A stretch of 64,000 nt of DNA from Candidatus Poribacteria bacterium (GTDB taxonomy: Bacteria > Poribacteria > WGA-4E > PCPOR2b). The stretch lies in assembly GCA_965208325.1 (NCBI GenBank), contig OZ242326.1, forward strand, positions 3,200,001 to 3,264,000, written 5' to 3'. Both the position numbers and the translations under genes were made by a program. How positions within the stretch are numbered: the stretch's first letter is position 1; the number at the start of each line of letters is the position of its first letter. Positions 2 through 24,028 of this stretch are shown in pieces. Below the pieces are notes generated by a model, which did no database searches, was not told the origin of the DNA, and saw only the letters and a program-made list of their open reading frames with translations.

Positions 2-1579
2 GCAGACGGTCGAAGTCGAGACTACGACATTTTTGTTATGGATATACAATCTCGAGAACAGCGTCAAGTGACATTTGCAGGAAGTCTGGACATTCATCCT
101 TCTTGGTCGCCCGACGGTAGTCGGATAGTGTTCGCTTCAGATGCAGGAGGTGTTTTTAATCTCTACACCGTGGATGAGAATGGGGAAAACCGTACCCGCC
201 TGACGAATAGTTCGGGTGACGATATCCATCCTGACTGGTCTCCGGACGGGAGCAAAATCGCGTTCGCTTCCGATCAGGCAAGCGCAGTTCATCAGGTTTA
301 CTGGTTGAATCCTCGAACTGGACACCAAAAGCAGTTGACTCAAATCAGTTTTGGAATTGATTACCCGCGATGGTCGCCTGATGGAACTAAAATAGCATTC
401 TATTCCGCAGTTCGCGATAGAGAACGATGGCCAGACGGCAGCAGGCAAATTTGGCAAGTCAGCACTGATGGATCCGGCTTAAAAAGCCTAATTACAGACG
501 GCGAATTCAATGATGAACCCGTCCTTTCTCCCGCTTTAAAGCACATCGCCTTTACATCAACGAGGGACGATAACACGGACATTTATATCTTCGATCGGGA
601 TTCCCGGCAAATTCAGCGTCTAACTCGCCACCCATCTTCAGATTCGCAGCCGAGTTGGTCGCCGGACGGTAAACACCTTGTGTTCGTCTCACACAGATCG
701 GGCAACGCTGACATACACAGGATTAACGCCGATGGCGGCGGAATTGTGAATTTGACGCAGAGTAAAGTCGACGAATATAGGCCAGCTTGGTCTCCGAAGA
801 GGGACATGATTTGTTTCCTGCGAAATGTAGATGGAAGGTGGGAACTTCGTGTGATGGACGGCAACGGGAAGCGTCAAAATCGGCTGGATAACAGCGTGTT
901 TTACAGCTCACGACCGACATGGTTGCCACGGGGAGATAAGATTGCCTTTGTGAGTATGCCCGATCCGCTGGGTAGGGATTACCGTATCTATACGATGGAT
1001 ACGGACGGGCAGAACAAGCGATTGTTGTTTAGGACAGTAGACGGCGAAATTCGAAAAATCAGTTGGTCGGCAGATGGCGACCAATTGATTTTTGTCCATT
1101 ACGCCAACGGGGTTCACGAAATCCGTATGCTCAATGTGATTACACGAGAGATCAACTCAATTGATTTGAACTTGAAGGTAGTTGCGCCTGACAACGCGGC
1201 TTGGGCGCCTTTAGGCCGGACGATTGTGTTTTCAGCTTTACCAATAGATCGACTACGGTCCGCCTTACGTTATGGCATTCTCTTCATTGACGCCGACAGC
1301 GATAAAACTCAAGAAGCAGAACCTCTATGGAATACCTTCAGTCCCGCCCCGATTCGATTACCCGACAGAAGAGCATGTTTTTCGTGGTCGCCCGATGGGC
1401 GAAACATCCTATTCGGTCACGGAAATTCTGAGAATCTCTACAAAACTGGATTAAGCGCGGGCGGCATCACACGTTTTCGCAGAAATGCGCATTCACCGGA
1501 TTGGAAGACGCCTCGTGTTTGGCGGAGCGTAACTCCCAAGAACAAGCTGCAAACAATTTGGGGCGCGGTCAAAAATTGA
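2..1579 (+). CDS. TolB-like/PD40 beta-propeller repeat protein, 5' end outside the window
   Basis: Many P-x-W-S-P-D-G-x-x-I-A-F repeats. The frame is open from base 2, and bases 1-76 match the interior of paralogue 3650..5548 (offset 3957), so Met38 is internal. Confidence 0.9.
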   Translation, partial: ADGRSRDYDIFVMDIQSREQRQVTFAGSLDIHPSWSPDGSRIVFASDAGGVFNLYTVDENGENRTRLTNSSGDDIHPDWSPDGSKIAFASDQASAVHQVYWLNPRTGHQKQLTQISFGIDYPRWSPDGTKIAFYSAVRDRERWPDGSRQIWQVSTDGSGLKSLITDGEFNDEPVLSPALKHIAFTSTRDDNTDIYIFDRDSRQIQRLTRHPSSDSQPSWSPDGKHLVFVSHRSGNADIHRINADGGGIVNLTQSKVDEYRPAWSPKRDMICFLRNVDGRWELRVMDGNGKRQNRLDNSVFYSSRPTWLPRGDKIAFVSMPDPLGRDYRIYTMDTDGQNKRLLFRTVDGEIRKISWSADGDQLIFVHYANGVHEIRMLNVITREINSIDLNLKVVAPDNAAWAPLGRTIVFSALPIDRLRSALRYGILFIDADSDKTQEAEPLWNTFSPAPIRLPDRRACFSWSPDGRNILFGHGNSENLYKTGLSAGGITRFRRNAHSPDWKTPRVWRSVTPKNKLQTIWGAVKN

Positions 1580-1790
1580 ACGCTTGGAGATATCTTCGCC
1601 GACACTGATTCTAATCAGTAAGCCAACAATTGCAATCAACTCGCTTAGTATCGTATAGCGTTAGGAGACATGACCATGATGATAATAGCGAAATGCCATC
1701 AGCAAACACACACATGTGATGCGAATCGTTACTTGTCGGCACGAATTGAGGTCGTCACACATTTTGTTATTTCGTTGCTGCTGATGTACT
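1577..1790 (+). repeat. Duplicated intergenic and N-terminal segment (partner at about 3557-3770)
   Basis: CAACAATTGCAATCAACTCGCTTAGTATCGTATAGCGTTAGGAGA is identical in both copies; flanks are highly similar. Confidence 0.9.
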
Positions 1791-3559
1791 TCGGTGTTTT
1801 TCCCGCAAATGCGCAGAAGCAACAAGAGCAAATTGTGTTTGTGTCTGAGGTCGCAGACCTTGACCAAATACACCTAAGAAAGGCTGGAGGCGGTCGAGTT
1901 AAAACTAATAAGCTCACATTACAAGAGCCAACAGGAAGCTATTTAACACCATCACTATCGTTTGATGGAGAACAGGTTGCATTTGCCTCTCGACTTGGAC
2001 GAAACTATGATATCTATGTTATGGAGCTACGGTCTCGTAAGCAGCGCCGCGTGACGTTTGCGCCAAGTCGGGACCTTTATCCGTCTTGGGCGACCGATGG
2101 AAGTCGGATTGCCTTTGCCTCGGACAAAGACGGAGTTTTTAATCTTTACACCATCGAAAAAAATGGAGAAAACCGCACCCGTCTGACAAATAGTTCGGGC
2201 GACGATATCCAACCCGACTGGTCTCCGGACGGGAGCAAAATCGCGTTCGCTTCTGATCAGGCAAGCGCAGTGCATCAAGTTTACTGTATGCATGTCCGAA
2301 CAGGAGATCAACAGAAACTGACTCAATTAGATTTTAATGCCGATTATCCGAGATGGTCGCCTGATGGGACTCAGATTGCATACCATTCTGCAGTTTTTGA
2401 CTGGGAGCCGCTGATTCGGCAAATTTGGCAGGTCGGCGCGGATGGATCGGGCTTAAAGAGCTTAATTACAGACGGCGAATACAATGATGACCCAGTCATT
2501 TCTCATGACTTAAAGCGAATTGCCTTTACATCTACTAGAGACGGTAATACGGACATTTATACCTACGATAGGGCTTCGATGCAAATTCACCGTATAACGC
2601 ATGACCCGTCTGACGATTATCAACCGAGTTGGTCTCCGGACGGAAAACACCTGGTTTTTGTTTCTGACAGAACCGGCAACCCTGACATTTACAAGATGAA
2701 CGCCGAAGGCGGCGGGATTGTTAGGTTGACTCGAAGCGATGCCGACGAAACTATGCCGGCTTGGTCGCCGCAAGGGGATTTGATCTGTTTCGTGCGAAAG
2801 GTAGGAGATGATGTACTTGGAAGACGGGAGATTCGTGTGATGGACAGCGACGGGAATCGTCAAATTAGGCTGGAAAATATCCCGTTTTCCAACAGATTTC
2901 CGGCATGGTCGCCGCAAGGGGATAAGATTGCCTTTGTGAATTGGCCCGAACGGCTCACTAGGGTTGATCGCATCTATACAGTTGATATAGATGGGCAGAA
3001 TAAGCGTTTGTTGTTTGAGACATTGGATGGCCGACTTGGAAGAATCAGTTGGTCTGGGGAGGGCAGGAAAATACTGTTTGTTTATCACTCAACAGGCGAC
3101 GCGATTTTTCAAGAAATTCGTATGCTTGATGTGAATACGCGAAAGGTCAACTCAATTAAATTGAAGCCGTTTTGGCTTGACAATGCTACTTGGGCGCCAA
3201 TTGGTAGGACGATTTTCTTTTCGGCTAAGCCGGTACGCCTGTTGCCCACCAAAGCCCCCCTTCGCCATGGCATTTTCTTGGTGGATGCCGGTGGGAATAT
3301 CCAAGAACCAAAACCCCTATGGGATACCTTCAGCGCCGAGGAACAATACAGAAAGCAGCGTTTTACGTGGTCGCCGGATGGGCACAGCATCCTATTCAGC
3401 CGAGGAGATGGAAAACTCTACTTAACCAAGCTGGACGGAGGAGGCGTCACACGTTTTCTCAACAATGCACATTCACCGGATTGGAAGATGCCTCGTGTCT
3501 GGCGGAGCGTAACATCCAAGAACAAGCTGCAAACAACTTGGGGAGAAGTCAAGAAATGA
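1670..3559 (+). CDS. Secreted TolB-like/PD40 beta-propeller repeat protein
   Basis: AGGAGA RBS; hydrophobic segment ending ...FPANA-Q (signal peptide-like); about 10 WSPDG-type repeats; C-terminal SV-x4-K-x4-WG-x-VK tail. Confidence 0.9.
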   Translation: MTMMIIAKCHQQTHTCDANRYLSARIEVVTHFVISLLLMYFGVFPANAQKQQEQIVFVSEVADLDQIHLRKAGGGRVKTNKLTLQEPTGSYLTPSLSFDGEQVAFASRLGRNYDIYVMELRSRKQRRVTFAPSRDLYPSWATDGSRIAFASDKDGVFNLYTIEKNGENRTRLTNSSGDDIQPDWSPDGSKIAFASDQASAVHQVYCMHVRTGDQQKLTQLDFNADYPRWSPDGTQIAYHSAVFDWEPLIRQIWQVGADGSGLKSLITDGEYNDDPVISHDLKRIAFTSTRDGNTDIYTYDRASMQIHRITHDPSDDYQPSWSPDGKHLVFVSDRTGNPDIYKMNAEGGGIVRLTRSDADETMPAWSPQGDLICFVRKVGDDVLGRREIRVMDSDGNRQIRLENIPFSNRFPAWSPQGDKIAFVNWPERLTRVDRIYTVDIDGQNKRLLFETLDGRLGRISWSGEGRKILFVYHSTGDAIFQEIRMLDVNTRKVNSIKLKPFWLDNATWAPIGRTIFFSAKPVRLLPTKAPLRHGIFLVDAGGNIQEPKPLWDTFSAEEQYRKQRFTWSPDGHSILFSRGDGKLYLTKLDGGGVTRFLNNAHSPDWKMPRVWRSVTSKNKLQTTWGEVKK

Positions 3560-3649
3560 ACCCTTGGCGATATCTTCAGCGACACTGATTCTAGTCGGAA
3601 AGTCAACAATTGCAATCAACTCGCTTAGTATCGTATAGCGTTAGGAGAT

Positions 3650-5548
3650 ATGACCATGAAGATAATAGCGAAATGCCATCAACGAACCAATACATGTGAT
3701 GCAAATCGTTACTTGTCGGCACGAGTTGAGGTCGTCACACATTTTGTTATTTTGTTGCTCCTGATGAATTTCACTTTGTTTCCGGCAAATGCCCAAAATC
3801 AACAAGAGCAAATTGTGTTTGTGTCAGGAGGGGACGACCGTGACGAAATACATCTCAGCAAGCCTGGAGGCGGTCAAATTCAAAAACTTACTTTACAACA
3901 AAAACGCTATGCCACACCATCGTTGTCGTACGATGGAAAACGGGTTGCGTTTGCCTCGGCAGACGGTCGAAGTCGAGACTACGACATTTTTGTTATGGAT
4001 ATACAATCTCGAGAACAGCGTCAAGTGACATTTATAGCAAGTCGAGACCTTTATCCGTCTTGGGCGCCCGACGGTAGTCGGATAGTGTTCGCTTCAGATG
4101 CAGGAGGTGTTTTCAATCTCTACACCGTGGATGAGAATGGAGAAAACCGTACCCGCCTGACGAATAGTTCGGGTGACGATATCCATCCTGACTGGTCTCC
4201 GGACGGGAGCAAAATCGCGTTCGCGTCGGATCAGGCAAGCGCGGTGCATCAAGTTTACTCGTTGAATCCTCGAACCGGACGCCAAAAGCAATTGACTCAA
4301 ATCAATTATAATAGCCGTTACCCGAGATGGTCTCCGGATGGGACTGAGTTGGCATTCTATTCGGCGGTTGTTGACAGGGAACGATGGCCAGACGGCAGCA
4401 GGCAAATTTGGCAAGTCAGCGCTGATGGAACCGGCTTAAAAAGCCTAATTACAGACGGCGACTACAATGATGAGCCAGTCATTTCTCATGACTTAAAGCG
4501 TATTGCCTTCATGTCTGCGAGAAATGATAATACGGACATTTATATCTTCGATCGAGATTCCCGGCAAATTCTGCGTCTTACTCGCCACCCATCTTTCGAT
4601 TCGCGGCCGAGTTGGTCGCCGGACAGTAAACATCTTGTGTTCGTTTCTCGCAGATCTGACAGCGCTGACATTTATAAGATTAACGCCGATGGCGGCGGGC
4701 TTGTGAATCTGACTCGCAGCGATGCCGATGAATCTATGCCAGTTTGGTCTCCGAAGAGGGACACAATCTGTTTCGTGCGAAATGTAGATGGAAGGCGGGA
4801 GATTCGTGTGATGGACAGTCATGGGAAGCGTCAAATGCGGCTGGATAATAGCCCATTCTACAGCTCACCGCCGACATGGTTGCCGCGAGGAGATAAGATT
4901 GCCTTTGTGAGTAAACCCGATCAGCTTGGTAGGGATTACCGTATCTATACAATGGATACGGATGGGCAGAATAAGCGACTGTTGTTTAGGACAGTAGATG
5001 GCGAAGTTCGAAAAATCAGTTGGTCTGCGGATGGCAAGCAAATGCTGTTTGTCCATTACGCCAATGGGGTTCACGAAATTCGTATGCTTGATGTGATTAC
5101 ACGAAAGGTTAGCAAAATAAATTTGAATTTGAAGGTGGTTGCGCCTGACAACGCGGCTTGGGCGCCTTTAGGCAGGACGATTGTGTTTTCAGCTTTACCA
5201 ATAAATCGACTACGGTCCGCCTTACGATATGGCATTCTCTTGATTGACGCCGACAGCGATAAATCTCAAGAAGCAGAACCTCTATGGAATACCTTCAGTC
5301 CCGACCCGATTCGATTACCCGACAGCAGAGCACGTTTTTCGTGGTCGCCCGATGGGCAGAACATCCTTTTCAGTCACGGAAATTCTGAGAATCTCTACAA
5401 AACTGGATTAAGCGGGGGAGGCGTCACACGTTTTCGCAGAAATGCGCATTCACCGGATTGGAAGACGCCTCGCGTTTGGCGGAGCGTAACTCCCAAAAAC
5501 AAGCTGCAAACAACTTGGGGAGAAGTCAAAGAAATAAACCGTGAGTAA
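3650..5548 (+). CDS. Secreted TolB-like/PD40 beta-propeller repeat protein
   Basis: Same architecture as 1670..3559; its start lies exactly 1980 bp downstream, with a near-identical upstream region. Confidence 0.9.
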   Translation: MTMKIIAKCHQRTNTCDANRYLSARVEVVTHFVILLLLMNFTLFPANAQNQQEQIVFVSGGDDRDEIHLSKPGGGQIQKLTLQQKRYATPSLSYDGKRVAFASADGRSRDYDIFVMDIQSREQRQVTFIASRDLYPSWAPDGSRIVFASDAGGVFNLYTVDENGENRTRLTNSSGDDIHPDWSPDGSKIAFASDQASAVHQVYSLNPRTGRQKQLTQINYNSRYPRWSPDGTELAFYSAVVDRERWPDGSRQIWQVSADGTGLKSLITDGDYNDEPVISHDLKRIAFMSARNDNTDIYIFDRDSRQILRLTRHPSFDSRPSWSPDSKHLVFVSRRSDSADIYKINADGGGLVNLTRSDADESMPVWSPKRDTICFVRNVDGRREIRVMDSHGKRQMRLDNSPFYSSPPTWLPRGDKIAFVSKPDQLGRDYRIYTMDTDGQNKRLLFRTVDGEVRKISWSADGKQMLFVHYANGVHEIRMLDVITRKVSKINLNLKVVAPDNAAWAPLGRTIVFSALPINRLRSALRYGILLIDADSDKSQEAEPLWNTFSPDPIRLPDSRARFSWSPDGQNILFSHGNSENLYKTGLSGGGVTRFRRNAHSPDWKTPRVWRSVTPKNKLQTTWGEVKEINRE

Positions 5549-8256: not shown

Positions 8257-8391
8257 AACAAACCTTAATTGAACCAAGCAATCCACAATAAATCCACTAG
8301 CAGTGATGAGATCAACCGAGTGAATAAGGACGGCGATAGTATTCCAAATCGCCAAAGTTTTGAAGTTCCCGCTAAGGAGGTAAAATCTCTA

Positions 8392-9183
8392 ATGAAGAGT
8401 TCGAATGGCTCTGTAATAATGAATATAGCTGCATTGCTTATATTTACTCTATTCGTTGCCGGATGTATGGGAGGAACCGCGTTAAAACACGAATCGCCGG
8501 TTCATCCTCCTGAGAATCTACCCGAAGATATCGTGCTTGACGCAGAAAACCCTGACTTTTTCAAAATCGCCGCCAAAGGCCCAATACTCTCTATGACGCA
8601 GAAGGATATTACCGTTTCACTTTCCTATTGGCGAAATGCCGATCTTAATTTTAGATATAATCGTGGGAGTTCAGTCTCACCTTTTTTTGAAACAGAAGGG
8701 CTTAAACAAGGCGATAAAACAGATGTCTTTTATGTGAAAATCGAAAACAACAGTCCCCAGAAAGTAGTCTTCAAGGTACAGGGGAGACGGGCTAGAGATG
8801 TGGCGGGATCGGTAGCAATATGTGAAATTGCCGATAAGAAGGAGAATCGTTTCCCAGTGCTGAGTTACGCTGATTTGGAGCAACGTCTCAGATACATGAC
8901 AAAGGTCGGCGGGCTGTATGTCAAGAATGGACTCGAGATAGCCAGGCAAATCTTAATTGAGCTTCAGATTCCGGACGATGAAATACTACCGGGTGAAAGC
9001 GCCGAAGGTTTCCTTCCATTTCAAGAGCTGAAACTAAACACCAGAGAGTTAGAAGTTATCATCCCGTTGGAGAAAGCGCCGCCGGAAGGTACAGCAGGGC
9101 GTTATCAAAACGTAGTGTTCAGGTTTCCCTTTGAACACTCCGAATCGATTAGACACGCTCAACCTCCCACAACCAGATACTGA
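8392..9183 (+). CDS. Hypothetical lipoprotein
   Basis: AAGGAGG RBS before ATG 8392 (in frame with ORF 8269); hydrophobic stretch ending in lipobox VAG-C. Confidence 0.8.
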   Translation: MKSSNGSVIMNIAALLIFTLFVAGCMGGTALKHESPVHPPENLPEDIVLDAENPDFFKIAAKGPILSMTQKDITVSLSYWRNADLNFRYNRGSSVSPFFETEGLKQGDKTDVFYVKIENNSPQKVVFKVQGRRARDVAGSVAICEIADKKENRFPVLSYADLEQRLRYMTKVGGLYVKNGLEIARQILIELQIPDDEILPGESAEGFLPFQELKLNTRELEVIIPLEKAPPEGTAGRYQNVVFRFPFEHSESIRHAQPPTTRY

Positions 9184-11699: not shown

Positions 11700-13418
11700 C
11701 TATCGGGGCACAACAGCGAGTTCCCGATTTAAATTATACATTAGCGGCCGGCGGTCAAAATTTCCTACGAAGTCGTAAAGTCCGTAAAGAAACGATCCGT
11801 CATTTTGAATCGTTTTGTCTTGAAGCGAGTCATATGCCAGGTTTTTTAGATACTCGTTTTTTTCGCCAATCCTTTGCGCGACAAGGTTACGCCGCGTAGT
11901 AAAACGCACGGCTTTCTCTAGCTGCGTTGGAATGGGTGCTGAGACGTTCAGTGTGTCCGCCTTTTTGCTAATGCGATACGTCTTCTTGTTTTCGTGATTG
12001 ACTATCAACCACTTGCGGCCCTTGTCTTCAATCGAGATATTGGCATTCTTGGGTAGGGGGAGGCTATTGTTCTGGAATGCTTGCCGCAGATTTCCCGAAA
12101 TTGTTCGTTTATCCAATTCAGTTTGGAACTCTATCCCAATACTAGCGAGCGGCTTTTGACGCAGTTGGAGAAACCTCTTCATTAAATACCAACGTTTGGG
12201 GCCGCCGTTATAGAAGGTGTAGCCTGTCCAGTAGGACGGATTGAGATCTCGATCGAGGTTTAATTCGGTTTTGAGGAGATCGGCATTGTCGCCGTAAAAT
12301 TTCATGCACTTATCATACAAGTCATACATCTCATCCCGTTTGAGGTGGTACGCAGCTAGAAAAGCGCTGATATGGGGCGCTTTAAGCAAATTGATATAAT
12401 ATCTACCCGTAGGGTCTTTCTTAGGGTTGTAGGTGCCTTTGAGTTCTGCTTCGAGCCGAGTCAAATAGTTCTTCCATGTCAGCGGTTCACCTGTCTCCAC
12501 GTCTTTACCAAGGCTAAGGAATTCCAGAAAAGGGCTATATACCGGGGAGCCCGGGTTCATAATGTCGCGGATTAACCCGGGTAAAACCGCCAAGTTATTT
12601 TGTGCAATCCCAATATCATCGTTATTTACTCGAGCGTCATTGCGGCCTACTGCGATTTCATCGAAGTTTGATTCAATCTCAAAAATTTTCAAGAGCCGCA
12701 GTGGATCCACGCCGGCTACTTGCCCAGCCACGAGCGCAAACGGGAAGTATCGCCTGCCCTCAAACAGAACATGCCGCAACGTCATCGGGGAATAGCCAGG
12801 AACCTTGAGACCCTTCTGATAGATTAGTTCATCTGTCGTAATTCCGTAGACCCTACGCTCTGTTTCAAGATCGAAATTATTATAAATCCAATACGCTTGT
12901 TCAATCGCCGCGACAATTCGCTTCTCGAAGGTCAGTTGATATGACGAACGCAATGTTTCATCGTAAACGACGACTGATTGCCCATGCCAATCTCTTTGAG
13001 CATATCCTGACACTGCGAGTTCAATCAATTTCTGCTGGAGATCCTTGCCGGGCTGCGCAAGCTGATTTAGTACGTCATCAATTGCCGCGTCCTGAATTGT
13101 CTTTTGATTGGTCAACGTAACAGCAAGCGTCTGGTTATTTTTTAGATAATGCCAAACTGTGTCATGGTCCTTTACAATACGATACCCAAGGAAAACGCCT
13201 AGTGCAGAAATGCCTAGAGCGGTTAATATGGACGCGATTATCAAAATTATCCGGGAAGTTTTTTTCGCTATTGCGAAAAGGGAAGTTTTCGGTACAAACG
13301 GCGGAATCAATTTATGCAGGCAATCACCCATTTTTTTCTCATCCAAAATGAGCGGTTCAATTGGTGAAGGAACCGACTTGCGCCGATTACGATTCCATTT
13401 TTGCGGTGATGTTCCCAT
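11700..13418 (-). CDS. Membrane-anchored lytic transglycosylase (SLT/lysozyme-like) domain protein
   Basis: N-terminal TM helix; SLT-like motifs GVDP-x-x-L-x-x-I-x-x-IESNF-x-x-x-AV, DIGIAQ and FYNGGP in the expected order. Confidence 0.6.
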   Translation of the reverse strand: MGTSPQKWNRNRRKSVPSPIEPLILDEKKMGDCLHKLIPPFVPKTSLFAIAKKTSRIILIIASILTALGISALGVFLGYRIVKDHDTVWHYLKNNQTLAVTLTNQKTIQDAAIDDVLNQLAQPGKDLQQKLIELAVSGYAQRDWHGQSVVVYDETLRSSYQLTFEKRIVAAIEQAYWIYNNFDLETERRVYGITTDELIYQKGLKVPGYSPMTLRHVLFEGRRYFPFALVAGQVAGVDPLRLLKIFEIESNFDEIAVGRNDARVNNDDIGIAQNNLAVLPGLIRDIMNPGSPVYSPFLEFLSLGKDVETGEPLTWKNYLTRLEAELKGTYNPKKDPTGRYYINLLKAPHISAFLAAYHLKRDEMYDLYDKCMKFYGDNADLLKTELNLDRDLNPSYWTGYTFYNGGPKRWYLMKRFLQLRQKPLASIGIEFQTELDKRTISGNLRQAFQNNSLPLPKNANISIEDKGRKWLIVNHENKKTYRISKKADTLNVSAPIPTQLEKAVRFTTRRNLVAQRIGEKNEYLKNLAYDSLQDKTIQNDGSFLYGLYDFVGNFDRRPLMYNLNRELAVVPR

Positions 13419-13523: not shown

Positions 13524-15677
13524 TCACACATTACTCATGAAGAAATATTCCAACTGTTCGATGGGGGTTTCCAGCCGAGCCGGCATCAGCTCGCTGACAA
13601 GCGATCGAAGTTGCTTTTCTCCACCTGGAATTGTATGCAACTGCAAATTTTGCATATTGAGGTAGTGCTGAAGTTGTTGGATGAGAAATGTTTGCAGCCC
13701 GTTCCCTGATTCGTGCAGTTGGGATGGCAGCAGTGCCGGGACGCAAATGCCGCTGATAAAGGTCTCAATGAGTTGGGTATACTCATCAAGTTGTTGCGCA
13801 ATTTGATGGTATTCCTGAGTGGCATTTTCGCGTATCTGCTTGTTAAAATCTGCCACATCGCGCCGTACAAGTTGGACGTACTCTTCGTTCCACTCATTTT
13901 CAACGTATTGCCTATTGTTGGTGCAAATTCCTTTTAATTCCCCGGTAATTTGCATGAGGCGATTCGAAGTAGTGTTCTTTATAGTCTTATCGATTTCAGC
14001 CGCTAGTTGGGCGAGTGTTCCGATGAATTCTAGTTCAAAAGCCCTGATATCGCTTGTTGGTGTGCCTTTCATCAATTCCACAAGCTGATTGGAAATATCA
14101 TGTAACCCACGGGACTGCTTCAGATGAAGCAGCACAAGTATGTAGCTTGACTTACCCAAACTCAATGCTACATCGTAGGAAGAAAAGGAAGTCTGGCTTT
14201 GAATGTCGTGGACTTCTTTTTGGACTTTGAGCAAGTGTTCATAATAACTCTCTTGCTCGCTTTGAATGGCGGAGTAAGTGCCGGTGTTTGGGACTTCAAA
14301 CACTCTCTTTGTAAGAATTTCACGTTTGTCATTGATTTCGCGGTGCCGCTGCATTTCATCCGCATCTTCTAAGGCTTTGGCTAGCGATTCGATAGTAGGC
14401 TGAAGCCGATCTATTTGTACGCGAATCGGCGGATAGGCATCATAGCGCGCATCCGTTGTGATGTTTCGAATATTTCCGAGTACCTCGCCGAGTCTTTCTT
14501 CATACGCCTGATCTTCAAGCGGTGAGTATACATCTTCGTCCGCTTCCGCGTCCATGTCCTCCTCGGCCAGGAACATGTGCATGAATCGATAAAAATGCTC
14601 AAGTTGATTATCATGCAGCAAACTCGCCTCTACGTAGAAGCAGAGTTTATCTTTGATAATTGTGCAGCTATCAATCACTGAAGCGCGGTCGAGGCTCAAT
14701 GCTGCCAAACTAAGGTAAAAGAGATCTTCCTCAAGTTCGGCGAAGTGCTTTTCAAAAGCCAAAGCAATTTTTTCATAAGCTTCATCAGAAATTGATTGAT
14801 GCCGGTTTTGGCTGCCATCCGAACGATGTAAATCGCTGGCTTGTTGGCGGGTCTTCGTAATAATCAAAGGCGGATTGTCATCCGCTGCGCGGCTAGAAGG
14901 TCTACGCATCGACGATTCCTGATTATAAATATTGAGAGCAGCTTGATAGTGGCGCAGCAATTCGCCATTACCGAGTTCAATCAGCAGCGACTCGATTGTG
15001 TTTTTCGGATCAAGGGCAATTCCTTCCTGTGCAAGCAACCTGTTAGATAAAGCAGCGAACCCTTCGCCGCCCAAATTCCGAAATGGGCGCAGCAAAAATG
15101 CGCGTCCATCTTCAATGTAAATCTTTTGCTTGCCCAGTGGAAAGCGGTTCTTGATGTGACCTCTTTGGTTATCGAACCAGATTTCCATGGGGTATGTATT
15201 GTTGTAGACCTGAAAGTTGATGGTGCCTTCCAGTAACCGATCGAACAAATCTCGGCGGATGTGCTCAAGGTCATTAACGTCAATAAGAATTATCGAAGCG
15301 TTATCGTTAGTATGTAGATTGGCATCAATGATTTTGTCGTTTGGAACCAAATAACGCCGCTCGAAAAAATGAATGCCCGTAACATTATCGTTCGTAATGG
15401 CAAGCCTCGGTATATCATACTCATCATAATAATAATATGATTTCCAACTAAGCGCACGCCGCCTCATCTTCTCAAATAACTGGAAAGAGAGACGTTGTTT
15501 GACTTTCCTTTCACGTTTCGGCACTGATTCTGCCTGATACGGAACAAGTGCTCCCTTTGTGTCAGGAACCTGTAAGCTGAGTTGTGGCAGCGATGAAGTT
15601 TTTTTCTTGCTTGGTAGGCGGGTTAGCGCTTTATCAAGATATTCATTCCAATCGATCATCTTCATCTCCTTATGCAA
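13524..15677 (-). CDS. Large hypothetical protein with helical/coiled-coil C-terminal half
   Basis: 717-codon ORF; AAGGAG RBS before ATG 15665; no family recognised. Confidence 0.85.
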   Translation of the reverse strand: MHKEMKMIDWNEYLDKALTRLPSKKKTSSLPQLSLQVPDTKGALVPYQAESVPKRERKVKQRLSFQLFEKMRRRALSWKSYYYYDEYDIPRLAITNDNVTGIHFFERRYLVPNDKIIDANLHTNDNASIILIDVNDLEHIRRDLFDRLLEGTINFQVYNNTYPMEIWFDNQRGHIKNRFPLGKQKIYIEDGRAFLLRPFRNLGGEGFAALSNRLLAQEGIALDPKNTIESLLIELGNGELLRHYQAALNIYNQESSMRRPSSRAADDNPPLIITKTRQQASDLHRSDGSQNRHQSISDEAYEKIALAFEKHFAELEEDLFYLSLAALSLDRASVIDSCTIIKDKLCFYVEASLLHDNQLEHFYRFMHMFLAEEDMDAEADEDVYSPLEDQAYEERLGEVLGNIRNITTDARYDAYPPIRVQIDRLQPTIESLAKALEDADEMQRHREINDKREILTKRVFEVPNTGTYSAIQSEQESYYEHLLKVQKEVHDIQSQTSFSSYDVALSLGKSSYILVLLHLKQSRGLHDISNQLVELMKGTPTSDIRAFELEFIGTLAQLAAEIDKTIKNTTSNRLMQITGELKGICTNNRQYVENEWNEEYVQLVRRDVADFNKQIRENATQEYHQIAQQLDEYTQLIETFISGICVPALLPSQLHESGNGLQTFLIQQLQHYLNMQNLQLHTIPGGEKQLRSLVSELMPARLETPIEQLEYFFMSNV

Positions 15678-16048: not shown

Positions 16049-17035
16049 ATGGAAGAAAAGAAAAATAATCTCATTGTAGGCCGTTATCAACAATTAGTAA
16101 TGAGTTATGATCCGTCTGTGGTAACATTGCCTTCAGAGGAAGATTTGAAGAAGGCATTGTTACTGTTAGATTTGTTGGCGGGCGACTTCGAAAAATCCAT
16201 CGGCTTTCTGAACCAATTGGAACACTTTGTTTCCGCGCCTCTCGATTTCAAGACATTTCAAAGGAAGATGACGGATCTCATAGAAGGTACCCGAGAAATT
16301 ACTGAGAGAGCACTCGATAATTACCACTACCTAACGGGCAATCTCAAGGACATTTATACTATTTTTACACAAACCGTTGAATCGGAAAATGCCATCGGTG
16401 AAACTCATGAAAGTTTAAATGCGCGGTTTAGATTTTGGATGCACTCAGTTGGGACTGAAAATGCAGCCGAAGGGGAAATCTCAAAAGAATTACAGTCCTT
16501 TTCTGAATTTATCCAGTTGCTGTCAAATGAACAATCGGGGTACGCCTATTTTTTATCTCCCCTTGGGGGAACGCACGTGCTCATCTGCCAGTATGTCCCT
16601 CTTGAACGTAGTTCGGAGGAGTTTGAGCTCCATTTCTCCACCTACGTGGAAGCGCCGGGTGCTCCCTTTAAAGGTTTAAAACGGGCATGGAATAAAATGT
16701 GCGGCGCCGCCAATAAGAGGGTTTACCATCTTTTCCGCGACTCACCCCCAAGCTCTACGATTGGTACATTCAAAGAGCGATTGTCGGTTTCAATCCCGCC
16801 CTATACACCTCATCGCTACAATCACGCGGAGCAGCTTACCAAGATTATCTATGACTTCATCAACGTTTACGGCGTTGACGCACGGCGCCATGTCCACCTG
16901 TTGAGCCACGATGATAAATTTGCCGTTTTCACGACCGATAGTCCAATACGGTTCGATGGACGTTTTGTTGACCTAGCGGATGTTGATACCGCTAGCGAAT
17001 TACTTGGAGCCGACTACCGCGTTATTATTGAATAA
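16049..17035 (+). CDS. Hypothetical protein
   Basis: 328-codon ORF divergent from 13524..15677; no family recognised. Confidence 0.8.
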   Translation: MEEKKNNLIVGRYQQLVMSYDPSVVTLPSEEDLKKALLLLDLLAGDFEKSIGFLNQLEHFVSAPLDFKTFQRKMTDLIEGTREITERALDNYHYLTGNLKDIYTIFTQTVESENAIGETHESLNARFRFWMHSVGTENAAEGEISKELQSFSEFIQLLSNEQSGYAYFLSPLGGTHVLICQYVPLERSSEEFELHFSTYVEAPGAPFKGLKRAWNKMCGAANKRVYHLFRDSPPSSTIGTFKERLSVSIPPYTPHRYNHAEQLTKIIYDFINVYGVDARRHVHLLSHDDKFAVFTTDSPIRFDGRFVDLADVDTASELLGADYRVIIE

Positions 17036-17480: not shown

Positions 17481-18500
17481 GTGCAATCTAGAATGATTAA
17501 CTCAACGGTTGTGTTGGTTGGCGTGCTATTTTTGTCCAGCGCTGCTGTGCTAATGATTGCCCAAGCGCAAGCCCCTATTCGTTCAACCATTGCCGTTGCT
17601 ACATCGGGAGCGGATGGATTCGGAATCTTTCTCGTGGATCCCAAAAGACCCCAAGGCGGTGCAGAGCAACTCCTCGAAATTGAAGGCGATCCCATCCCCG
17701 GCGGATTGGAATGGTCCCCGGACGGCACCAAGATAGCTTTCCATACCAAAGTTGGACAGAATATTGATGTTTTCGTAGTCGATGGGCATGGTGATGGGCT
17801 CAAAAAACTGACCGACCATGAAGCCGAGGATAGCTGGCCAGCATGGCACCCGAGCGGACAAAAACTGGCATTCACGACCAATCGCGACGGCAACTTGGAG
17901 ATTTACACAATGACATCTTCCGGGGTAGTTATCGAAAACCTAACAAACGATCCCGCGCCAGACAAAAATCCAGCGTGGTCCCCAAATGGCCGTAGTATAG
18001 CTTTCGCTTCCAAACGCGGCCGTACTATCTCTGATGTCTGGATAATGGATTCCGCGGGAGGGAACCCGCAGAATCTGACCAATCACAAGGGAGAAGATAT
18101 TGAACCTTCGTGGTCGTGGGACGGTCAAAAGATTGCCTTCACGACCCGACGGTTTGGATCCGGGCGCGCTATGACAATGGACCCTGACGGCGGCAATCTG
18201 CTCAAGGTTTCGGGACCGGATGTTGAGCGAAGAGATCCCGAGTTTTCACCGGATGGCAAAGAAATCGCTACTGTGTGGTTCGGCGGCGGCCAGACACGTC
18301 TGGACATATACCCAAGCGACGGGAAGCACGCGGATGCCGACCAGCACGGACCGCCGGTGTGGGATATTATAGATCTCGGGTTCCCGAGTGCAGGACCGGC
18401 TTGGTTTGACCCCGACTTTGTGGTGCCATTCTCCGTTTCTCCTACCGATAAACGCCCTTTGAGCTGGGGTTGGCTCAAGAGCGCTGGAAATGAGAAATAA
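17481..18500 (+). CDS. Secreted TolB-like/PD40 single beta-propeller protein
   Basis: GGGAGG RBS; signal peptide ending AQA; WSPDG/WHPSG/WSPNG repeats; WG-x-LK tail. Confidence 0.9.
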   Translation: MQSRMINSTVVLVGVLFLSSAAVLMIAQAQAPIRSTIAVATSGADGFGIFLVDPKRPQGGAEQLLEIEGDPIPGGLEWSPDGTKIAFHTKVGQNIDVFVVDGHGDGLKKLTDHEAEDSWPAWHPSGQKLAFTTNRDGNLEIYTMTSSGVVIENLTNDPAPDKNPAWSPNGRSIAFASKRGRTISDVWIMDSAGGNPQNLTNHKGEDIEPSWSWDGQKIAFTTRRFGSGRAMTMDPDGGNLLKVSGPDVERRDPEFSPDGKEIATVWFGGGQTRLDIYPSDGKHADADQHGPPVWDIIDLGFPSAGPAWFDPDFVVPFSVSPTDKRPLSWGWLKSAGNEK

Positions 18501-18624: not shown

Positions 18625-19647
18625 GTGCAAGTGCGGAAAGTAGATTCGAAATTTTTGATTGCTATGGGTGTGCTTTTCTTGAGCGGCTTCGCCGTATTGA
18701 TGATTGCTCAAGCACAAGCCCCCCACCGTTCAACCATTGCGATTGCCACTTCTGGAGTGGAAGGATTTGGAATTTTTCTGCTCGATCCTCAGAAACCAGC
18801 AGCCGCTGCAGAACATCTCCTTGAAGTTGAAGGAGACCCCATCCCCGGCGGACTGGAGTGGTCGCCGGATGGTAATACGATTGCCTTTCATACACAAATT
18901 GGACAGAATATAGAAATCTTCGTGGTCGATGGCGATGGGAACGGTCTCAAACAGCTCACCGACCACGAGGCGGAAGATAGTTGGCCTGCTTGGCACCCGA
19001 GCGGCCAAAAGCTGGCATTTACGAGTAACCGGGACGGCAACCTGGAAATCTACACCATGACAATGGGTGGAGAAGTTATCGCTAACCTAACGAACGATCC
19101 GGCTCCAGATAAAAATCCCGCTTGGTCGCCGAACGGACGCAATATTGCTTTTACTACCAAGCGCGGGCGGACGTTGTCAGATATCTGGCTGATGGACTCC
19201 GCGGGAGGCAACCTCAAAAACCTCACCAACCACAAAGGCGAGGATCTTACTCCCTCGTGGTCGTGGGACGGTGAAAAGATTGCCTTTACAACGCGGCGGT
19301 TTGGAGCCGGCCGTACAATGCGGATGGACGCCGATGGCGAGAATCTGCTGAAGATTTCCGCGCGTCAAGTGCCGCGGTTAGACCCCGAATTTTCCCCGGA
19401 CGGAAAAGAAATAGCCAACGTATGGTTTGGAGGCGGCCAGACACGCCTCCATATATGGCCAAGCGACGGTGGGCTTGCCGACGCCGATGAGCACGCCGCG
19501 CCGGTGTGGAAAGAGATAGCACTCGGTTTTCCAAGTGCTGGACCCGCTTGGTTTGACCCTGATTTTGTCGTACCGTTCTCTGTCGCCGCTACAGACAAAC
19601 GGCCTTTGAGTTGGGGCTGGCTTAAGAAAGCCGGAGCCGAGAAGTAG
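18625..19647 (+). CDS. Secreted TolB-like/PD40 single beta-propeller protein
   Basis: Close paralogue of 17481..18500; GGGAGG RBS. Confidence 0.9.
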   Translation: MQVRKVDSKFLIAMGVLFLSGFAVLMIAQAQAPHRSTIAIATSGVEGFGIFLLDPQKPAAAAEHLLEVEGDPIPGGLEWSPDGNTIAFHTQIGQNIEIFVVDGDGNGLKQLTDHEAEDSWPAWHPSGQKLAFTSNRDGNLEIYTMTMGGEVIANLTNDPAPDKNPAWSPNGRNIAFTTKRGRTLSDIWLMDSAGGNLKNLTNHKGEDLTPSWSWDGEKIAFTTRRFGAGRTMRMDADGENLLKISARQVPRLDPEFSPDGKEIANVWFGGGQTRLHIWPSDGGLADADEHAAPVWKEIALGFPSAGPAWFDPDFVVPFSVAATDKRPLSWGWLKKAGAEK

Positions 19648-19768
19648 CGGGTGATAGACGAGAATTCATCCTTAACAATTTACGAAGAGAATTCGAAACA
19701 CGGCGGCTATCCGTTAACTTTCAATGCATTCAATCCTGATTTGCGATTAGCAAAAGGAGGTAGAAATT

Positions 19769-20794
19769 ATGCAACACTCGATAACTACTTTGCGTCTAAG
19801 CATATTCACAGGTGTGTTCCTCGTGAGTTGCTTTGTGACAATCTTTAGTGTACACGCTCAAGCGCCCACCGGTTCAACAATTGCAGTTGCCAGTGTAGGG
19901 GACGGTGGGACGCTCTGGCTCATGGATAAAGATGGAGAACAACAGCGCGCCATTCACGACATTGAGGGAGATCCGGTGGTCTTGGGGTTGTCGTGGTCAC
20001 CTGACGGCAATAAGATTGCGTTCTTTTCTGAAAAGAAGAAGGATGTTGACAGCGATGTGTATGTGATAGACGCCGACGGTAAAGGGCTGAGAAATCTCAC
20101 GGACCGTCAAGGGTTTGATGGCTGGCCCACTTGGCATCCCAGCGGCCAGAGACTCGCCTTCACTTCCGACCGAGACGGCAACCTTGAAATTTACACCATG
20201 TCTGCTCAAGGCGTCCTCGGCGGAAACCTCACGAACGATGCTGTTCCCGACCAAATGCCCGCTTGGTCGCCAGATGGCCGTAATATTGCTTTCGCCTCAA
20301 AGCGAGGAAAGACACTCGGTGACATCTGGGTGATGGACACTAGCGGAGGCAACCTCCAGAACTTGACGGATCATAGGGGACAGGACATTGAACCCCGATT
20401 TTCATTGGACTCCAAAAAAATTGCTTGGACAACACGGCGGTTCGGAGAAGGAGTCATCATGACCATGGACGCCGATGGACAGAACAAGATACAAATTTCG
20501 CCCAATCCTGAGAACGAAAAGCGCGATCCGGCGTTTTCACCCGACGGGAAGAAAATTATTTACATTAGATTCGGCGGCGGTACGGCAAATATCCAGCGGC
20601 GGTCGGTCAAACAGTTTGCAAAGGTAGAGGCAAACCTCTGCGCAGCGGATTGCTTTGAACTTCCGGCGATTGGTTTCCCGACACGTTCACCGGTATGGTT
20701 CGACCCGGATTTTGTCGTTGAATGGGCGGTTTCTCCTGCTGATAAACGCCCATTGACATGGGGCTGGATAAAACGGTTGGGACAGAGCAGATAA
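19769..20794 (+). CDS. Secreted TolB-like/PD40 single beta-propeller protein
   Basis: Third paralogue; AGGAGG RBS; signal peptide ending VHA. Confidence 0.9.
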   Translation: MQHSITTLRLSIFTGVFLVSCFVTIFSVHAQAPTGSTIAVASVGDGGTLWLMDKDGEQQRAIHDIEGDPVVLGLSWSPDGNKIAFFSEKKKDVDSDVYVIDADGKGLRNLTDRQGFDGWPTWHPSGQRLAFTSDRDGNLEIYTMSAQGVLGGNLTNDAVPDQMPAWSPDGRNIAFASKRGKTLGDIWVMDTSGGNLQNLTDHRGQDIEPRFSLDSKKIAWTTRRFGEGVIMTMDADGQNKIQISPNPENEKRDPAFSPDGKKIIYIRFGGGTANIQRRSVKQFAKVEANLCAADCFELPAIGFPTRSPVWFDPDFVVEWAVSPADKRPLTWGWIKRLGQSR

Positions 20795-20826
20795 TCCTTG
20801 GCGCAGACTCCGTCCACCAGCTAACG

Positions 20827-21276
20827 ATGAATCAATACAGGCATACGCAGATAGGTTATCTCCTTATCATCTTGTATGGCGGGGTGGTAGTCCTCATAGG
20901 TTATTTTAATGTTTTGAAGGGTTTTAATAACCCGTTTGCCTTGGCCGCACTTATCGTTTTGCTGGTTATTCTGAAGTTTTTCTCTAGTTTGACGGTGACA
21001 GTGAATGACCAGGTGATTACGATTCAATTTGGGCTCGGTGTTTATCGGAAAGCCTTTCCCTTAAAAGAGATTGAATCCTACGCTGTAGTCAAGAATCGTT
21101 GGTATTACGGTTGGGGGATTAGGTACACGCCGCGGGGTTGGCTTTTCAATGTATCTGGTTTCTCCGCAATTGAGCTGCAAATGAATAATGGGAAGAGATA
21201 TCGAATCGGGACGGATGAACCGGATAATCTGGCGATTGCACTTTCGGATGCCCTGAATGATGCTCCCAATCGTTAA
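20827..21276 (+). CDS. Small membrane protein with PH-like soluble domain
   Basis: Two TM helices followed by WYYGWGIR...FNVSG...YRIGTDEP, a pattern common in small uncharacterised membrane proteins; ATG 20827 avoids overlap with the previous gene. Confidence 0.8.
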   Translation: MNQYRHTQIGYLLIILYGGVVVLIGYFNVLKGFNNPFALAALIVLLVILKFFSSLTVTVNDQVITIQFGLGVYRKAFPLKEIESYAVVKNRWYYGWGIRYTPRGWLFNVSGFSAIELQMNNGKRYRIGTDEPDNLAIALSDALNDAPNR

Positions 21277-21298
21277 CGCGGCGCAGTGGAGGAAAAAA

Positions 21299-22084
21299 GT
21301 GTTTTATCGCATTGTAAAATGCGTTTCGATTACGTTTATCAGCGTTGTTAGCTTCGCTAGTATCTTCGTAACACCAGGGTATGCGGAAATTGCCCCAGAC
21401 ACCATTGTAGGTTTATGGTTGTTAGACGAGGATAAAGGCAGGGAAGCTAAAGATAGTTCTGGCAATGAACTTCACGGGACGTTCACCGGGTCTCCCAAGT
21501 GGAGGGAAGGTAAATTCGGCCGGGCTTTGGAACTCCCAGGTGGTGGCGATACTGTCAAAATTGAAGGATTAGCGCAGGACTTTCCCGCCGAAGAAGTGAC
21601 AATCACATCGTGGGTGAAAGCAGAGGGGTTAAAGAACCAAGACCTATTTAGCCTCGAACCACTTGACCCTAGCCGCGTCACTGTCCACTTTCCGTGGGAT
21701 AATCAACTTCACTGGCAGTTCAGCACCATTTGGATGCATCCACCACTTGCTCTTGGTGAGGAGGTTGTAGGTAAATGGCAACACTGGGCTTTCATCCATA
21801 GTATTGCGGATAACGTAATGCTTGCCTATCAAGACGGTGAGGTGGTCGGAGAATCACTGAATTCCAAAGCGTATGCTCCCCGGGCCGGAGATTTTCACAT
21901 AGGCGGTAGGTTAGGTTCTTCCTTTAAAGGTTTCGTTGACGAAGTTGGAATCTTTGAGGCTGTCCTCAGTCAAGATGATATACAAAGCATCATGGATAAC
22001 GGCCTGGAGACGCAAGTCTTTGCAGTTGCGCCAACTGGCAAACTTGCGGTTTCATGGGGCAAAATGAAGGTACGAAGGGAATGA
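21299..22084 (+). CDS. Secreted LamG/concanavalin A-like domain protein
   Basis: GGAGG RBS before GTG; signal peptide; W-L-L-D-E...DSSGN..HG, GKFG-x-AL, T-I-T-S-W-V, WQH, F-x-G-x-VDEV-x-IF motifs. Confidence 0.9.
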   Translation: MFYRIVKCVSITFISVVSFASIFVTPGYAEIAPDTIVGLWLLDEDKGREAKDSSGNELHGTFTGSPKWREGKFGRALELPGGGDTVKIEGLAQDFPAEEVTITSWVKAEGLKNQDLFSLEPLDPSRVTVHFPWDNQLHWQFSTIWMHPPLALGEEVVGKWQHWAFIHSIADNVMLAYQDGEVVGESLNSKAYAPRAGDFHIGGRLGSSFKGFVDEVGIFEAVLSQDDIQSIMDNGLETQVFAVAPTGKLAVSWGKMKVRRE

Positions 22085-22213
22085 ATTTCAAATTGCTATC
22101 GACAGTGGTTGGTTCCAGTAGGTGCGTTGCTTGCAGTCGATGGATAACATATGACAGCAGAGCTACAATAAAAACTTGAAACACATCAAAATTACCAATT
22201 AGGAGGAAATACA

Positions 22214-23011
22214 ATGTTTATTCGTAATGCAACCCAAATTTCGATTGTATTTGTGAGTTTAGTAGCCATCGGTTGGGTTTTCACACCATCCGGGCATTCA
22301 GAGATTGACCCTGATACCATTGTAGGGATGTGGCTGCTCGACGAGGATAAGGGCAAAGAAGCCAAAGATGGTTCAGGCAATGAACGTCATGGGACGTTCA
22401 CCGGGTCTCCCAAATGGAGAGAAGGTAAATTCGGCCGGAGTGTGGAGTTTTCCGGTGGAGGCGATACTGTCCGAATAGATGGATTGGGGCAGGAATTTCC
22501 CACGGAGGAAGTAACCATTACGTCATGGGTGAAGGTAGAGGGTTTCAACAATCAAGACCTTTTTAGCCTTGAGCCGCTTGAGGTCGGTAACAGGGGCCGC
22601 GTCACAGTCCACATGCCGTGGGACGGCGGTGTTCACTGGCAGTTTGGTTCGCCATTTACGGGGATTAATCCAGTTGCGCTCGACAAAGGCGTGGAAGGCA
22701 AATGGCAGCACTGGACGTTCGTCCATAGTGTTGCAGATAACGTGTTCCTTGTCTATCAGGACGGCAAGGAAGTGCAAAGAAACGTGAATTCGCAGGCGTT
22801 TGTTCAAGGCGCCGCAGATTTTCACATAGGCGGTAGACTGGGGTCCTCATTTGAGGGTTTCGTCGATGAGTTCGCAATATTCGAGGCTGTCCTTAGCCCG
22901 GCTGACATAAATAGCGTCATGGAAAACGGTCTTGAAGCTCGCGTCTTTGCGGTTTCACCAGACAGCAAACTTTCGACCTCCTGGGGTCGAATTAAAGAAC
23001 TAAGACAGTAA
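22214..23011 (+). CDS. Secreted LamG-like domain protein
   Basis: Paralogue of the preceding gene; AGGAGG RBS. Confidence 0.9.
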   Translation: MFIRNATQISIVFVSLVAIGWVFTPSGHSEIDPDTIVGMWLLDEDKGKEAKDGSGNERHGTFTGSPKWREGKFGRSVEFSGGGDTVRIDGLGQEFPTEEVTITSWVKVEGFNNQDLFSLEPLEVGNRGRVTVHMPWDGGVHWQFGSPFTGINPVALDKGVEGKWQHWTFVHSVADNVFLVYQDGKEVQRNVNSQAFVQGAADFHIGGRLGSSFEGFVDEFAIFEAVLSPADINSVMENGLEARVFAVSPDSKLSTSWGRIKELRQ

Positions 23012-23245
23012 ACCCAGTTGTCGTACCATCCTGGCACCCATATTTACACCCTCCGGGGGATGAGCCGTGCGGCTATAGACAGCGAAATGAGAATCTTTGT
23101 TAACCGGCCATAGGGCAAACACACGATTGCGAAGCGACGCTGACGGATGCGTAGATTGTAGCGTGCTGTAAAAACAGGATCTTAATTTGTGCTGGCGTTG
23201 TTTCGGATGTAACCTATCGGCAAACCATTTATGGGGGTTCAAACA

Positions 23246-24028
23246 ATGTTTGCTCGTAATGTAACCAGGATTTTGATTGTATGTGTGAGTTTGGTTGCCT
23301 TCAATTGGATCTTAGCAACATCAGGACATACGGAGATCGACCCAGATACTATTATAGGGTTGTGGCTGCTTGATGAAGGCAAGGGGAAGGAGACCAAGGA
23401 CAGTTCAGGGAATGAACTTCACGGGACTTTCACGGGAACCCCCAAATGGAGAAATGGCAAGTTTGGTATGGGTTTGGAGTTTCCGGGCGGAGGCGATACG
23501 GTCAAAATTGAGGGATTTGCCCAGGATTTTCCCGCGCAAGAGGTTACAATCACGTCGTGGGTGCGGTTAGAAGGGTTCAAGAATCAAGACCTTTTTAGTA
23601 TGGAACCGCTAGAGCCTAGCCGCGTCACAGTCCACTTTCCCTGGGATAACCATGTTCACTGGCAGTTCAGCAATACGGGCATAGCACCAATTGCGATTGG
23701 CGACGAGATAAAAGGTAAATGGCAGCATTGGGCATTCATTCATAGTGTCGCCGATAACGAAATGATTGCCTACCAAGATGGCGAAGAGGTCCGTAGAACA
23801 CCGGTCTCCAAGGCGTATGTTCCACGGGCAGGAAGTTTTCACATTGGGGGTAGACTGGGTTCTTCTTTTGAGGGATTCGTTGACGAAGTTGGACTATTTG
23901 AAGCTGTTCTAAGCCAAGATGACATAAAGAGAATCATGGACAATGGACTTCAGGGGGGCGTATTTGCTGTTTTACCAACTAGCAAACTTGCGGTCTCTTG
24001 GGGCAAAATGAAGATGCGAAGGGAGTGA
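23246..24028 (+). CDS. Secreted LamG-like domain protein
   Basis: Third paralogue; start chosen by alignment with 22214 (MF..N.T.I.IV.VSLVA). Confidence 0.9.
   Translation: MFARNVTRILIVCVSLVAFNWILATSGHTEIDPDTIIGLWLLDEGKGKETKDSSGNELHGTFTGTPKWRNGKFGMGLEFPGGGDTVKIEGFAQDFPAQEVTITSWVRLEGFKNQDLFSMEPLEPSRVTVHFPWDNHVHWQFSNTGIAPIAIGDEIKGKWQHWAFIHSVADNEMIAYQDGEEVRRTPVSKAYVPRAGSFHIGGRLGSSFEGFVDEVGLFEAVLSQDDIKRIMDNGLQGGVFAVLPTSKLAVSWGKMKMRRE

Follow-up and report, generated by a model that had tools for sequence, protein, structure and literature searches.

A short C-terminal tail on exported proteins of Candidatus Poribacteria as a candidate sorting signal linked to type IX secretion

A 64,000-nucleotide stretch of the genome of a Candidatus Poribacteria bacterium (the window: positions 3,200,001-3,264,000 of the single 4.71-Mb contig, OZ242326.1) encodes nine proteins, six PD40 propellers and three LamG (PF13385) proteins, that end in the same short tail, defined here by the strict motif [SA]V-x4-K-x4-WG-x-[VLIM]K. 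Genome-wide analysis showed that this tail is a real, unmodelled C-terminal tag that lies outside every curated sorting-signal family, and we infer that it serves as a sorting signal, most likely a new signal variant of systems resembling a type IX secretion system (T9SS). Its C-terminal position, its exported carriers and its attachment to 12 unrelated sequence clusters are the behaviour of a sorting signal, and its placement directly before type A C-terminal domains (CTDs) in other proteins links it physically to T9SS signals. We put at about even the chances that it is a T9SS-linked sorting peptide, used in place of the type A CTD or ahead of it, with a PorV-family barrel, SprA or PorU as its reader.

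Position, conservation and carriers of the tail

When re-read from the open reading frames (ORFs), the nine protein ends in the window were exactly those given by a first-pass annotation made from the DNA letters alone, with the motif lying 1, 1, 5, 6, 6, 6, 4, 4, and 4 residues from the stop in carriers 1 to 9. Across the genome the strict pattern had 64 matches among 24,615 ORFs of at least 50 amino acids, 63 of which fell within 10 residues of the stop. A hidden Markov model (HMM) seeded on the strict matches recovered 119 matches scoring at least 8 bits, of which 116 stood no more than 12 residues from the stop, compared with seven weak ones in reversed ORFs. A refined HMM, iterated on C-terminal matches yet run over all ORFs, yielded 124 carriers at 10 bits or more and three matches in reversed ORFs; all 124 carriers had the match at the C-terminus, as the annotation's proposal of a C-terminal signal implied. 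The tail therefore recurs far beyond chance, and a 26-row profile matched all 151 Poribacteria genomes, which represent nine families.

The consensus of the 124 carriers is [AS]-V-x-P-x-x-K-L-x-T-T-W-[GA]-x-[LI]-K, in which W is conserved in 124, K in 122 and V in 121 proteins, and the invariant Lys lies 1-14 residues from the C-terminal end, most commonly three. The tail is basic (median net charge +3), and the best 17-residue hydropathy within the last 30 residues was low (median 0.45, maximum 1.56), in agreement with the earlier observation that it contains no transmembrane helix. Because the conserved residues are encoded by mixed codons, conservation acts on the protein, and a DNA repeat can be ruled out as the source of the tail.

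The carriers appear to be exported. Using a hydropathy rule on the N-terminus to call signal peptides, we detected a hydrophobic N-terminal stretch in 121 of the 124 carriers compared with 849 of 2,285 other ORFs of at least 250 amino acids, a co-occurrence that the annotation had noted in the window; carrier 1 has this stretch once its full ORF is taken from the genome. A further transmembrane segment was seen in one carrier, and a lipobox-like match in one. With the tail removed, the carriers fell into 12 unrelated sequence clusters, comprising 74 LamG-like proteins, 35 propellers and 10 small groups; among the latter are DUF1080, cohesin and DUF3108-like proteins and several without a Pfam match (18 proteins scanned), so that the tail is attached to many more folds than the two seen in the window. 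It is found on 74 of the 85 LamG-like proteins of the genome. An origin of the tail as an integral strand of the carrier folds is ruled out by the 12 unrelated clusters and by its position beyond the Pfam domains (the window proteins themselves were not folded). Sponge metatranscriptome contigs that are ~90% alike cover tail genes, which is no proof of transcription. Two irregular loci, G000:C1:1247445-1248217 and 396789-397571, concern a LamG carrier split into two ORFs, the second with the tail, and a type A CTD that contains an in-frame TAA.

No Pfam or NCBIfam family describes the tail in profile scans of carriers and tails, and the curated sorting-signal models in these databases, against which the annotation had proposed to compare it, gave no match. 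In particular, the type A models TIGR04183 and PF18962 matched neither the nine window carriers nor their tails, and TIGR04131 (type B) and NF033708 (type C) did not match the carriers. ESM Atlas searches with the tail alone gave scores below 0.9. The motif was undescribed in the literature searched, a search that subscription journals and supplements lay outside; two papers that it listed concern splicing factors, judging by the listing, and the available portion of a preprint by Haft (bioRxiv 2023.06.07.544157) contains no mention of Poribacteria, Latescibacteria or Ignavibacteria.

Type IX secretion genes and fusions of the tail to type A domains

The genome holds 51 TIGR04183 matches, eight PorV-family genes over cut-off with several weaker ones, a SprA-like frame of 2,196 codons, and two CTD-bearing C25 peptidases that have the His and Cys motifs and whose BLAST scores place them nearer PorU than the long C25 family. 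GldM (TIGR03517) had no match in this genome or in three other tail-positive genomes with a positive control that worked, a negative that a diverged motor could produce by escaping the profile, and GldK, L and N were not searched. In the accessible part of a 2014 study of Poribacteria, WD40 proteins are reported to have TIGR04183 matches, while structural Por genes are reported as absent (PMC3909097); the SprA-like and PorU-like genes found here, without a GldM match, constitute a T9SS-like machine that this study did not find.

In 13 of the 50 type A CTD proteins examined, the tail motif stands directly before NYPNPF, with L replacing W, and the TIGR04183/PF18962 match begins after the tail. 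These fusions scored 11.5-31, compared with a control maximum of 5.8 in 4,906 segments; they comprise twelve apparently related WD40 proteins (one scanned) and one FG-GAP protein. A metagenome scan for the same arrangement found at least 119 loci. Among the 119 matches listed, 62 had a Poribacteria-type CTD, and the other 57 had ordinary CTDs, none of them with W at the tryptophan position. In 55 distinct fusions among the matches listed, that position was occupied by W (33), L (11), F (10), or M (1), and the 32 passengers long enough to compare, again among the matches listed, formed 11 clusters, with NHL, FG-GAP, dehydrogenase-type (sugar-dehydrogenase) propeller, esterase, subtilase and LVIVD domains in the ten scanned. 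Fusion of the tail ahead of a CTD is thus general. In the fusions the first CTD strand begins no more than two or three residues after the Lys, and an AlphaFold model of one fusion was confident for the CTD and not for the tail (predicted local distance difference test, pLDDT, about 50), leaving packing of the tail on the CTD in cis unsupported by the model.

Table 1 Tail carriers and tail motifs in the window (window positions) and T9SS-like genes elsewhere in the genome (contig positions)
Feature	Position	Strand	Remark
PD40 double beta-propeller, tail carrier 1	2..1579	+	starts upstream of window; 625 aa in genome
Tail motif 1	1526..1573	+	one residue from stop
PD40 double propeller, 629 aa, tail carrier 2	1670..3559	+	
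Tail motif 2	3506..3553	+	
PD40 double propeller, 632 aa, tail carrier 3	3650..5548	+	
Tail motif 3	5483..5530	+	
PD40 single propeller, 339 aa, tail carrier 4	17481..18500	+	
Tail motif 4	18432..18479	+	
PD40 single propeller, 340 aa, tail carrier 5	18625..19647	+	
Tail motif 5	19579..19626	+	
PD40 single propeller, 341 aa, tail carrier 6	19769..20794	+	
Tail motif 6	20726..20773	+	
LamG/concanavalin-like protein (PF13385), 275 aa, tail carrier 7	21257..22084	+	
Tail motif 7	22022..22069	+	
LamG protein, 265 aa, tail carrier 8	22214..23011	+	named homologue from Candidatus Poribacteria
Tail motif 8	22949..22996	+	
LamG protein, 265 aa, tail carrier 9	23231..24028	+	
Tail motif 9	23966..24013	+	
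Diverged SprA-like gene	G000:C1:3089390-3095956		
Very long PorU-like C25 peptidase with CTD	G000:C1:3715227-3721577		
Very long PorU-like C25 peptidase with CTD	G000:C1:4021620-4027898		

Just upstream of the window, at G000:C1:3196109-3197992, a fourth long propeller with a tail extends the array at the window start. Four other ORFs in the window (16049-17035, 13524-15677, 11700-13418, and 8269-9183; 304-717 amino acids) had no Pfam match, and the three of them scanned against NCBIfam (all except 13524-15677) had none there either.

A shorter-spaced form and its distribution

A second, more widespread form of the tail was retrieved with the pattern TWGxIKxx[YF]R-stop at no fewer than 120 loci of a species-genome collection. 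The named sources of the loci listed are Ignavibacteria, Kapabacteria, Kryptonia, Calditrichota, KSB1, Zixibacteria, Eisenbacteria, Krumholzibacteria, and Latescibacterota, with further records labelled merely Bacteroidota or bacterium. Among the 120 loci listed, 70 encode one family of about 135 amino acids, four encode a Zixibacteria-type small protein with another domain, and most of the remainder encode unrelated exported proteins. Three loci were set aside as not being true carriers, namely L045 (no ORF), L115 (a chance match) and L069 (a membrane protein); the last, a Bacteroidia protein with several hydrophobic segments (L069:1000-1530), has the wide-form letters at its end through chance, convergence or misbinning. 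In the Zixibacteria-type genomes (L035, L042, L099, and L149), where the tail is on a different small domain, the small gene sits between Rex-like and anti-sigma-factor-like genes (named by eye), and a weak test found no longer homologues of its product.

In the protein of about 135 amino acids a signal peptide is followed by an FN3 domain and then by a C-terminal helix, which AlphaFold models as separate, and the protein is annotated as hypothetical where sensibly named. Thirty such proteins with a mean identity of 32% share ten invariant columns, seven of which lie in the tail, a proportion partly forced by the search pattern. Foldseek returned generic FN3 folds and ESM Atlas unnamed clusters only, while a PDB sequence search with the wide-form profile found nothing and a phage search found one weak FN3 match; the protein was not found in this Poribacteria genome, where two weak FN3 matches lack the tail. 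A profile of the wide tail had exactly one match in each of 29 genomes of a single-copy group (Ignavibacteria, Kapabacteria, Calditrichota, KSB1, and Zixibacteria) and 3-64 matches in each of 18 Eisenbacteria, Krumholzibacteria and Latescibacterota-type genomes, counts in which presence is circular but copy number is not. Of the matches outside the seed, 20 were picked by hand; every one lay 3-8 residues from the stop, and 17 of the 20 passed the hydropathy rule.

The two forms share the core [TS]-W-G-x-[IL]-K, an upstream Val, a C-terminal position and exported carriers, and they differ in the spacing from Val to Trp, which is 10 in the Poribacterial form and 4-5 in the wide form. A partly circular profile comparison aligned 11 columns at 94.6%. 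On the basis of the six-residue core we consider the forms probably homologous. Since the shorter-spaced form ends exported proteins in many lineages belonging to the FCB (Fibrobacteres-Chlorobi-Bacteroidetes) group, the tail is probably not limited to one lineage, contrary to the annotation's description of it as lineage-specific.

The small protein shares its FN3 domain with larger proteins, in which a type A-like CTD comes after it (20 hand-picked loci; the CTD was called by a PNP regular expression in 14 of the 20 and read by eye in the others), and the cohesin domain in this Poribacteria genome is likewise found with either the tail or a type A CTD. Because the same FN3 and cohesin domains take either ending, tail and CTD appear to exchange in the same slot. 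About 100 or more type A CTDs are encoded in each of five tail-positive genomes, and a loose Thr-small-Val/Ile-like pattern preceded such CTDs in 20 of 23 cases, a hint only, as there was no control.

We compared the distribution of the wide form with that of T9SS genes in 121 genomes drawn from Bacteroidota, the phylum of Rosettibacter. The full small protein was present in 46 genomes, one copy each; all 46 had a PorU-family match, and none of the 31 PorU-less genomes had the small protein. Of the 28 genomes that encode the green sulfur bacterial FMO protein, 25 lacked both PorU and the small protein, two had both and one had PorU only, and the available part of a published analysis reporting Chlorobiota without SprA (PMC12611786) agrees with these losses. 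GldM was over cut-off in 29 genomes, none of which had the small protein or tail, and in none of the 46 small-protein genomes, one of which had a weak partial match. All but one of the 48 genomes that have a wide-form tail match (47) had SprA over cut-off; among the 50 wide-profile genomes it was missing from three, namely two chance-match genomes and a 1.6-Mb assembly with C25 genes. Given that these genomes are related, the co-occurrence represents few independent events and not 121 points.

Mechanism, alternative explanations and significance

If the tail is a T9SS-linked sorting peptide, a carrier would cross the inner membrane by Sec. The tail, unfolded alone, would next take up a short helical fold on a T9SS component of the outer membrane (a barrel of the PorV family, SprA as the translocon, or a PorU-like sortase), where W, G, I/L and the invariant Lys close to the C-terminus would make the contacts; the carrier would then be exported or become surface-attached, perhaps with cleavage close to the conserved Val. 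Small single-domain cargo would bear the tail in place of a type A CTD, and in larger cargo the tail would form the linker before the CTD. The setting would be a type IX-like system in lineages without a recognisable GldM motor, where one small protein may use the tail in Ignavibacteria-like lineages and where it may have expanded into a general tag in Poribacteria, Eisenbacteria, Krumholzibacteria and Latescibacterota.

Among known systems, type A CTDs (TIGR04183 / PF18962, with the PorV shuttle and the PorU sortase) resemble the tail most in being C-terminal on Sec-exported unrelated folds, in numbering dozens per genome, in having a conserved Lys near the end and in occurring in the same genomes, to which are added the local fusions and the exchange behind FN3 and cohesin domains. 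In the available portions of the sources, type A CTDs use a conserved Lys of their last strand, mapping placed the HBP35 signal in the last 22 residues (PMC11285876; PMC12398890), and one translocon reads several signal classes via different shuttles (PMC12618676, PMC12398890). The tail differs in being about 16 residues long, modelled as a short helix or disordered and unmatched by the CTD model, whereas the type A CTD is an Ig-like beta-sandwich of 70-100 residues, and it was not found in the 29 GldM-positive genomes, the group in which T9SS has been studied. As for what type A export requires, a Sec signal peptide is predicted by the hydropathy rule for nearly all carriers and SprA-, PorV- and PorU-like genes are in the genome, the SprA-like ones below cut-off, whereas the GldLM/PorLM motor was not seen in the TIGR03517 search described above. 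Type B (TIGR04131, PorP/SprF shuttles) and type C (NF033708, ChiA) signals are folded CTDs of about 80-100 residues whose models do not match the carriers, and no porP/sprF-like gene lies downstream of the tail genes. Tripartite signals (LPXTG/sortase, PEP-CTERM/exosortase, GlyGly-CTERM, and MYXO-CTERM) are likewise short, C-terminal, present in many copies, near-invariant in signature and basic at the end; a transmembrane helix is their defining part in the portion available of bioRxiv 2023.06.07.544157, whereas the tail has no hydrophobic segment in the last 30 residues.

Several results weigh against a T9SS-linked sorting peptide. The tail has no beta-sandwich fold, and a folded beta-sandwich is reported, in the part of PMC11285876 available, to be necessary for type A secretion; if the tail alone served as an export signal, its placement ahead of a full CTD would be redundant; and because PorU cleavage is described as sequence-independent in the accessible part of PMC4804311, the case for the Val motif as a cut site is weakened. 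The Poribacterial SprA-like genes all score under the family cut-off (in five of five distant Poribacteria as in this genome), and the Poribacterial profile alone finds nothing in five wide-form genomes. The co-occurrence with T9SS genes rests on one loss in Chlorobiaceae and one split in Bacteroidia, and 19 of the 65 PorU-positive, GldM-negative genomes lack the tail, which is therefore not essential to such GldM-less PorU systems. In eight genomes the PorV-family genes divide into PorV, PorQ, PorV2-like genes and paralogues linked to cargo, and none of these follows the distribution of the tail; the conserved ones, PorV, PorQ and PorV2-like, are also present in tail-less genomes. Lastly, the small gene is flanked by MATE-, Maf-, and SpoIID-like genes (named by eye) and not by T9SS genes.

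The annotation had proposed an unidentified cognate machine; the binding partner has indeed not been found, but for the machine the evidence points to a T9SS-like apparatus. A tail-specific PorV paralogue was looked for and not found, and no cognate shuttle gene adjoins the tail genes. Six genomes of three lineages (L500-L511) have a gene for a long second C25 peptidase 13-16 kb away from the small gene, with unrelated genes between. This peptidase was rejected as the cognate sortase because 11 small-protein genomes and two Latescibacterota genomes hold only one C25 gene (E 1e-50). Complex prediction for a small tail protein with the PorV of the same organism (score 0.07, mark 0.32) weighs neither way. 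In Rosettibacter (G151, L304-L327) there are 18 PorV-family matches, many directly 3' of a gene ending in a CTD-like strand, which suggests that these copies are cargo-specific shuttles.

The alternative that survives best, though we regard it as unlikely, is that the tail is a docking tag retained on the mature protein, where it binds a surface scaffold or a CTD-bearing carrier, so that small lectin-like modules and propellers are carried along through the translocon or displayed in exchangeable arrays; in the fusions PorU would remove the CTD alone, leaving the tail as the new C-terminus. Such docking would account for the fusion of the tail to a full CTD with W often kept, for the small size of tail cargo (median 276 amino acids vs 816 for type A cargo), and for the strict W-G/A-x-I/L-K conservation, which fits a protein partner. 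However, neither a scaffold nor a stand-alone carrier of the CTD was identified, the fused model shows no packing of the tail against the CTD, and the two or three residues between Lys and the first CTD strand leave little room for a cut.

Less probable still is a T9SS-independent envelope anchor, either a membrane-binding amphipathic helix or a Lys acceptor for a peptidoglycan cross-link analogous to that of Braun's lipoprotein; the T9SS co-occurrence would then reflect shared ancestry. The separate C-terminal helix of the wide form in AlphaFold models, its high hydrophobic moment as a helix (median 0.55, against a median of 0.30 and a 90th percentile of 0.53 for the background), the basic charge of the Poribacterial tail and the identical end letters of the Bacteroidia membrane protein L069 are consistent with an anchor. 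The moment of the Poribacterial form is not raised, however (0.24), and an anchor leaves unexplained the fusions before type A CTDs, the loss together with PorU in Chlorobiaceae, and the common use of the tail in T9SS-bearing Poribacteria and FCB lineages. We consider it very improbable that the tail is a leftover linker from CTD-bearing ancestors, spread by paralogue expansion, with the two forms as look-alikes of no common function: 109 of the 124 carriers do fall in two expanded clusters, and the forms differ in spacing and in profile, but W, V and K are near-invariant on unrelated folds with mixed codons, all 151 Poribacteria genomes have the tail, and most invariant columns of the small proteins lie in it, with the reservation about the search pattern given above.

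A T9SS-linked sorting peptide could, as a more tentative proposal that we hold to be somewhat doubtful, represent a fourth class of type IX signal, a peptide of ~ten to sixteen residues and not a folded domain, used by GldLM-free T9SS of Poribacteria and many non-Bacteroidia FCB lineages, with the FN3-plus-tail protein as an unrecognised component or dedicated substrate. T9SS signals in the cited literature, as far as the portions available extend, are folded domains studied in Bacteroidia, and a short peptide signal, if true, would change what the translocon can recognise and would offer a route to how T9SS-like systems work without GldM. Although Poribacteria are uncultured, bench testing is possible because the single-copy form is present in the cultured Rosettibacter primus 4148-Me (L098). 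For the Poribacteria themselves, a short peptide signal would provide a destination for more than 100 lectin-like and propeller proteins per genome of a dominant sponge symbiont.

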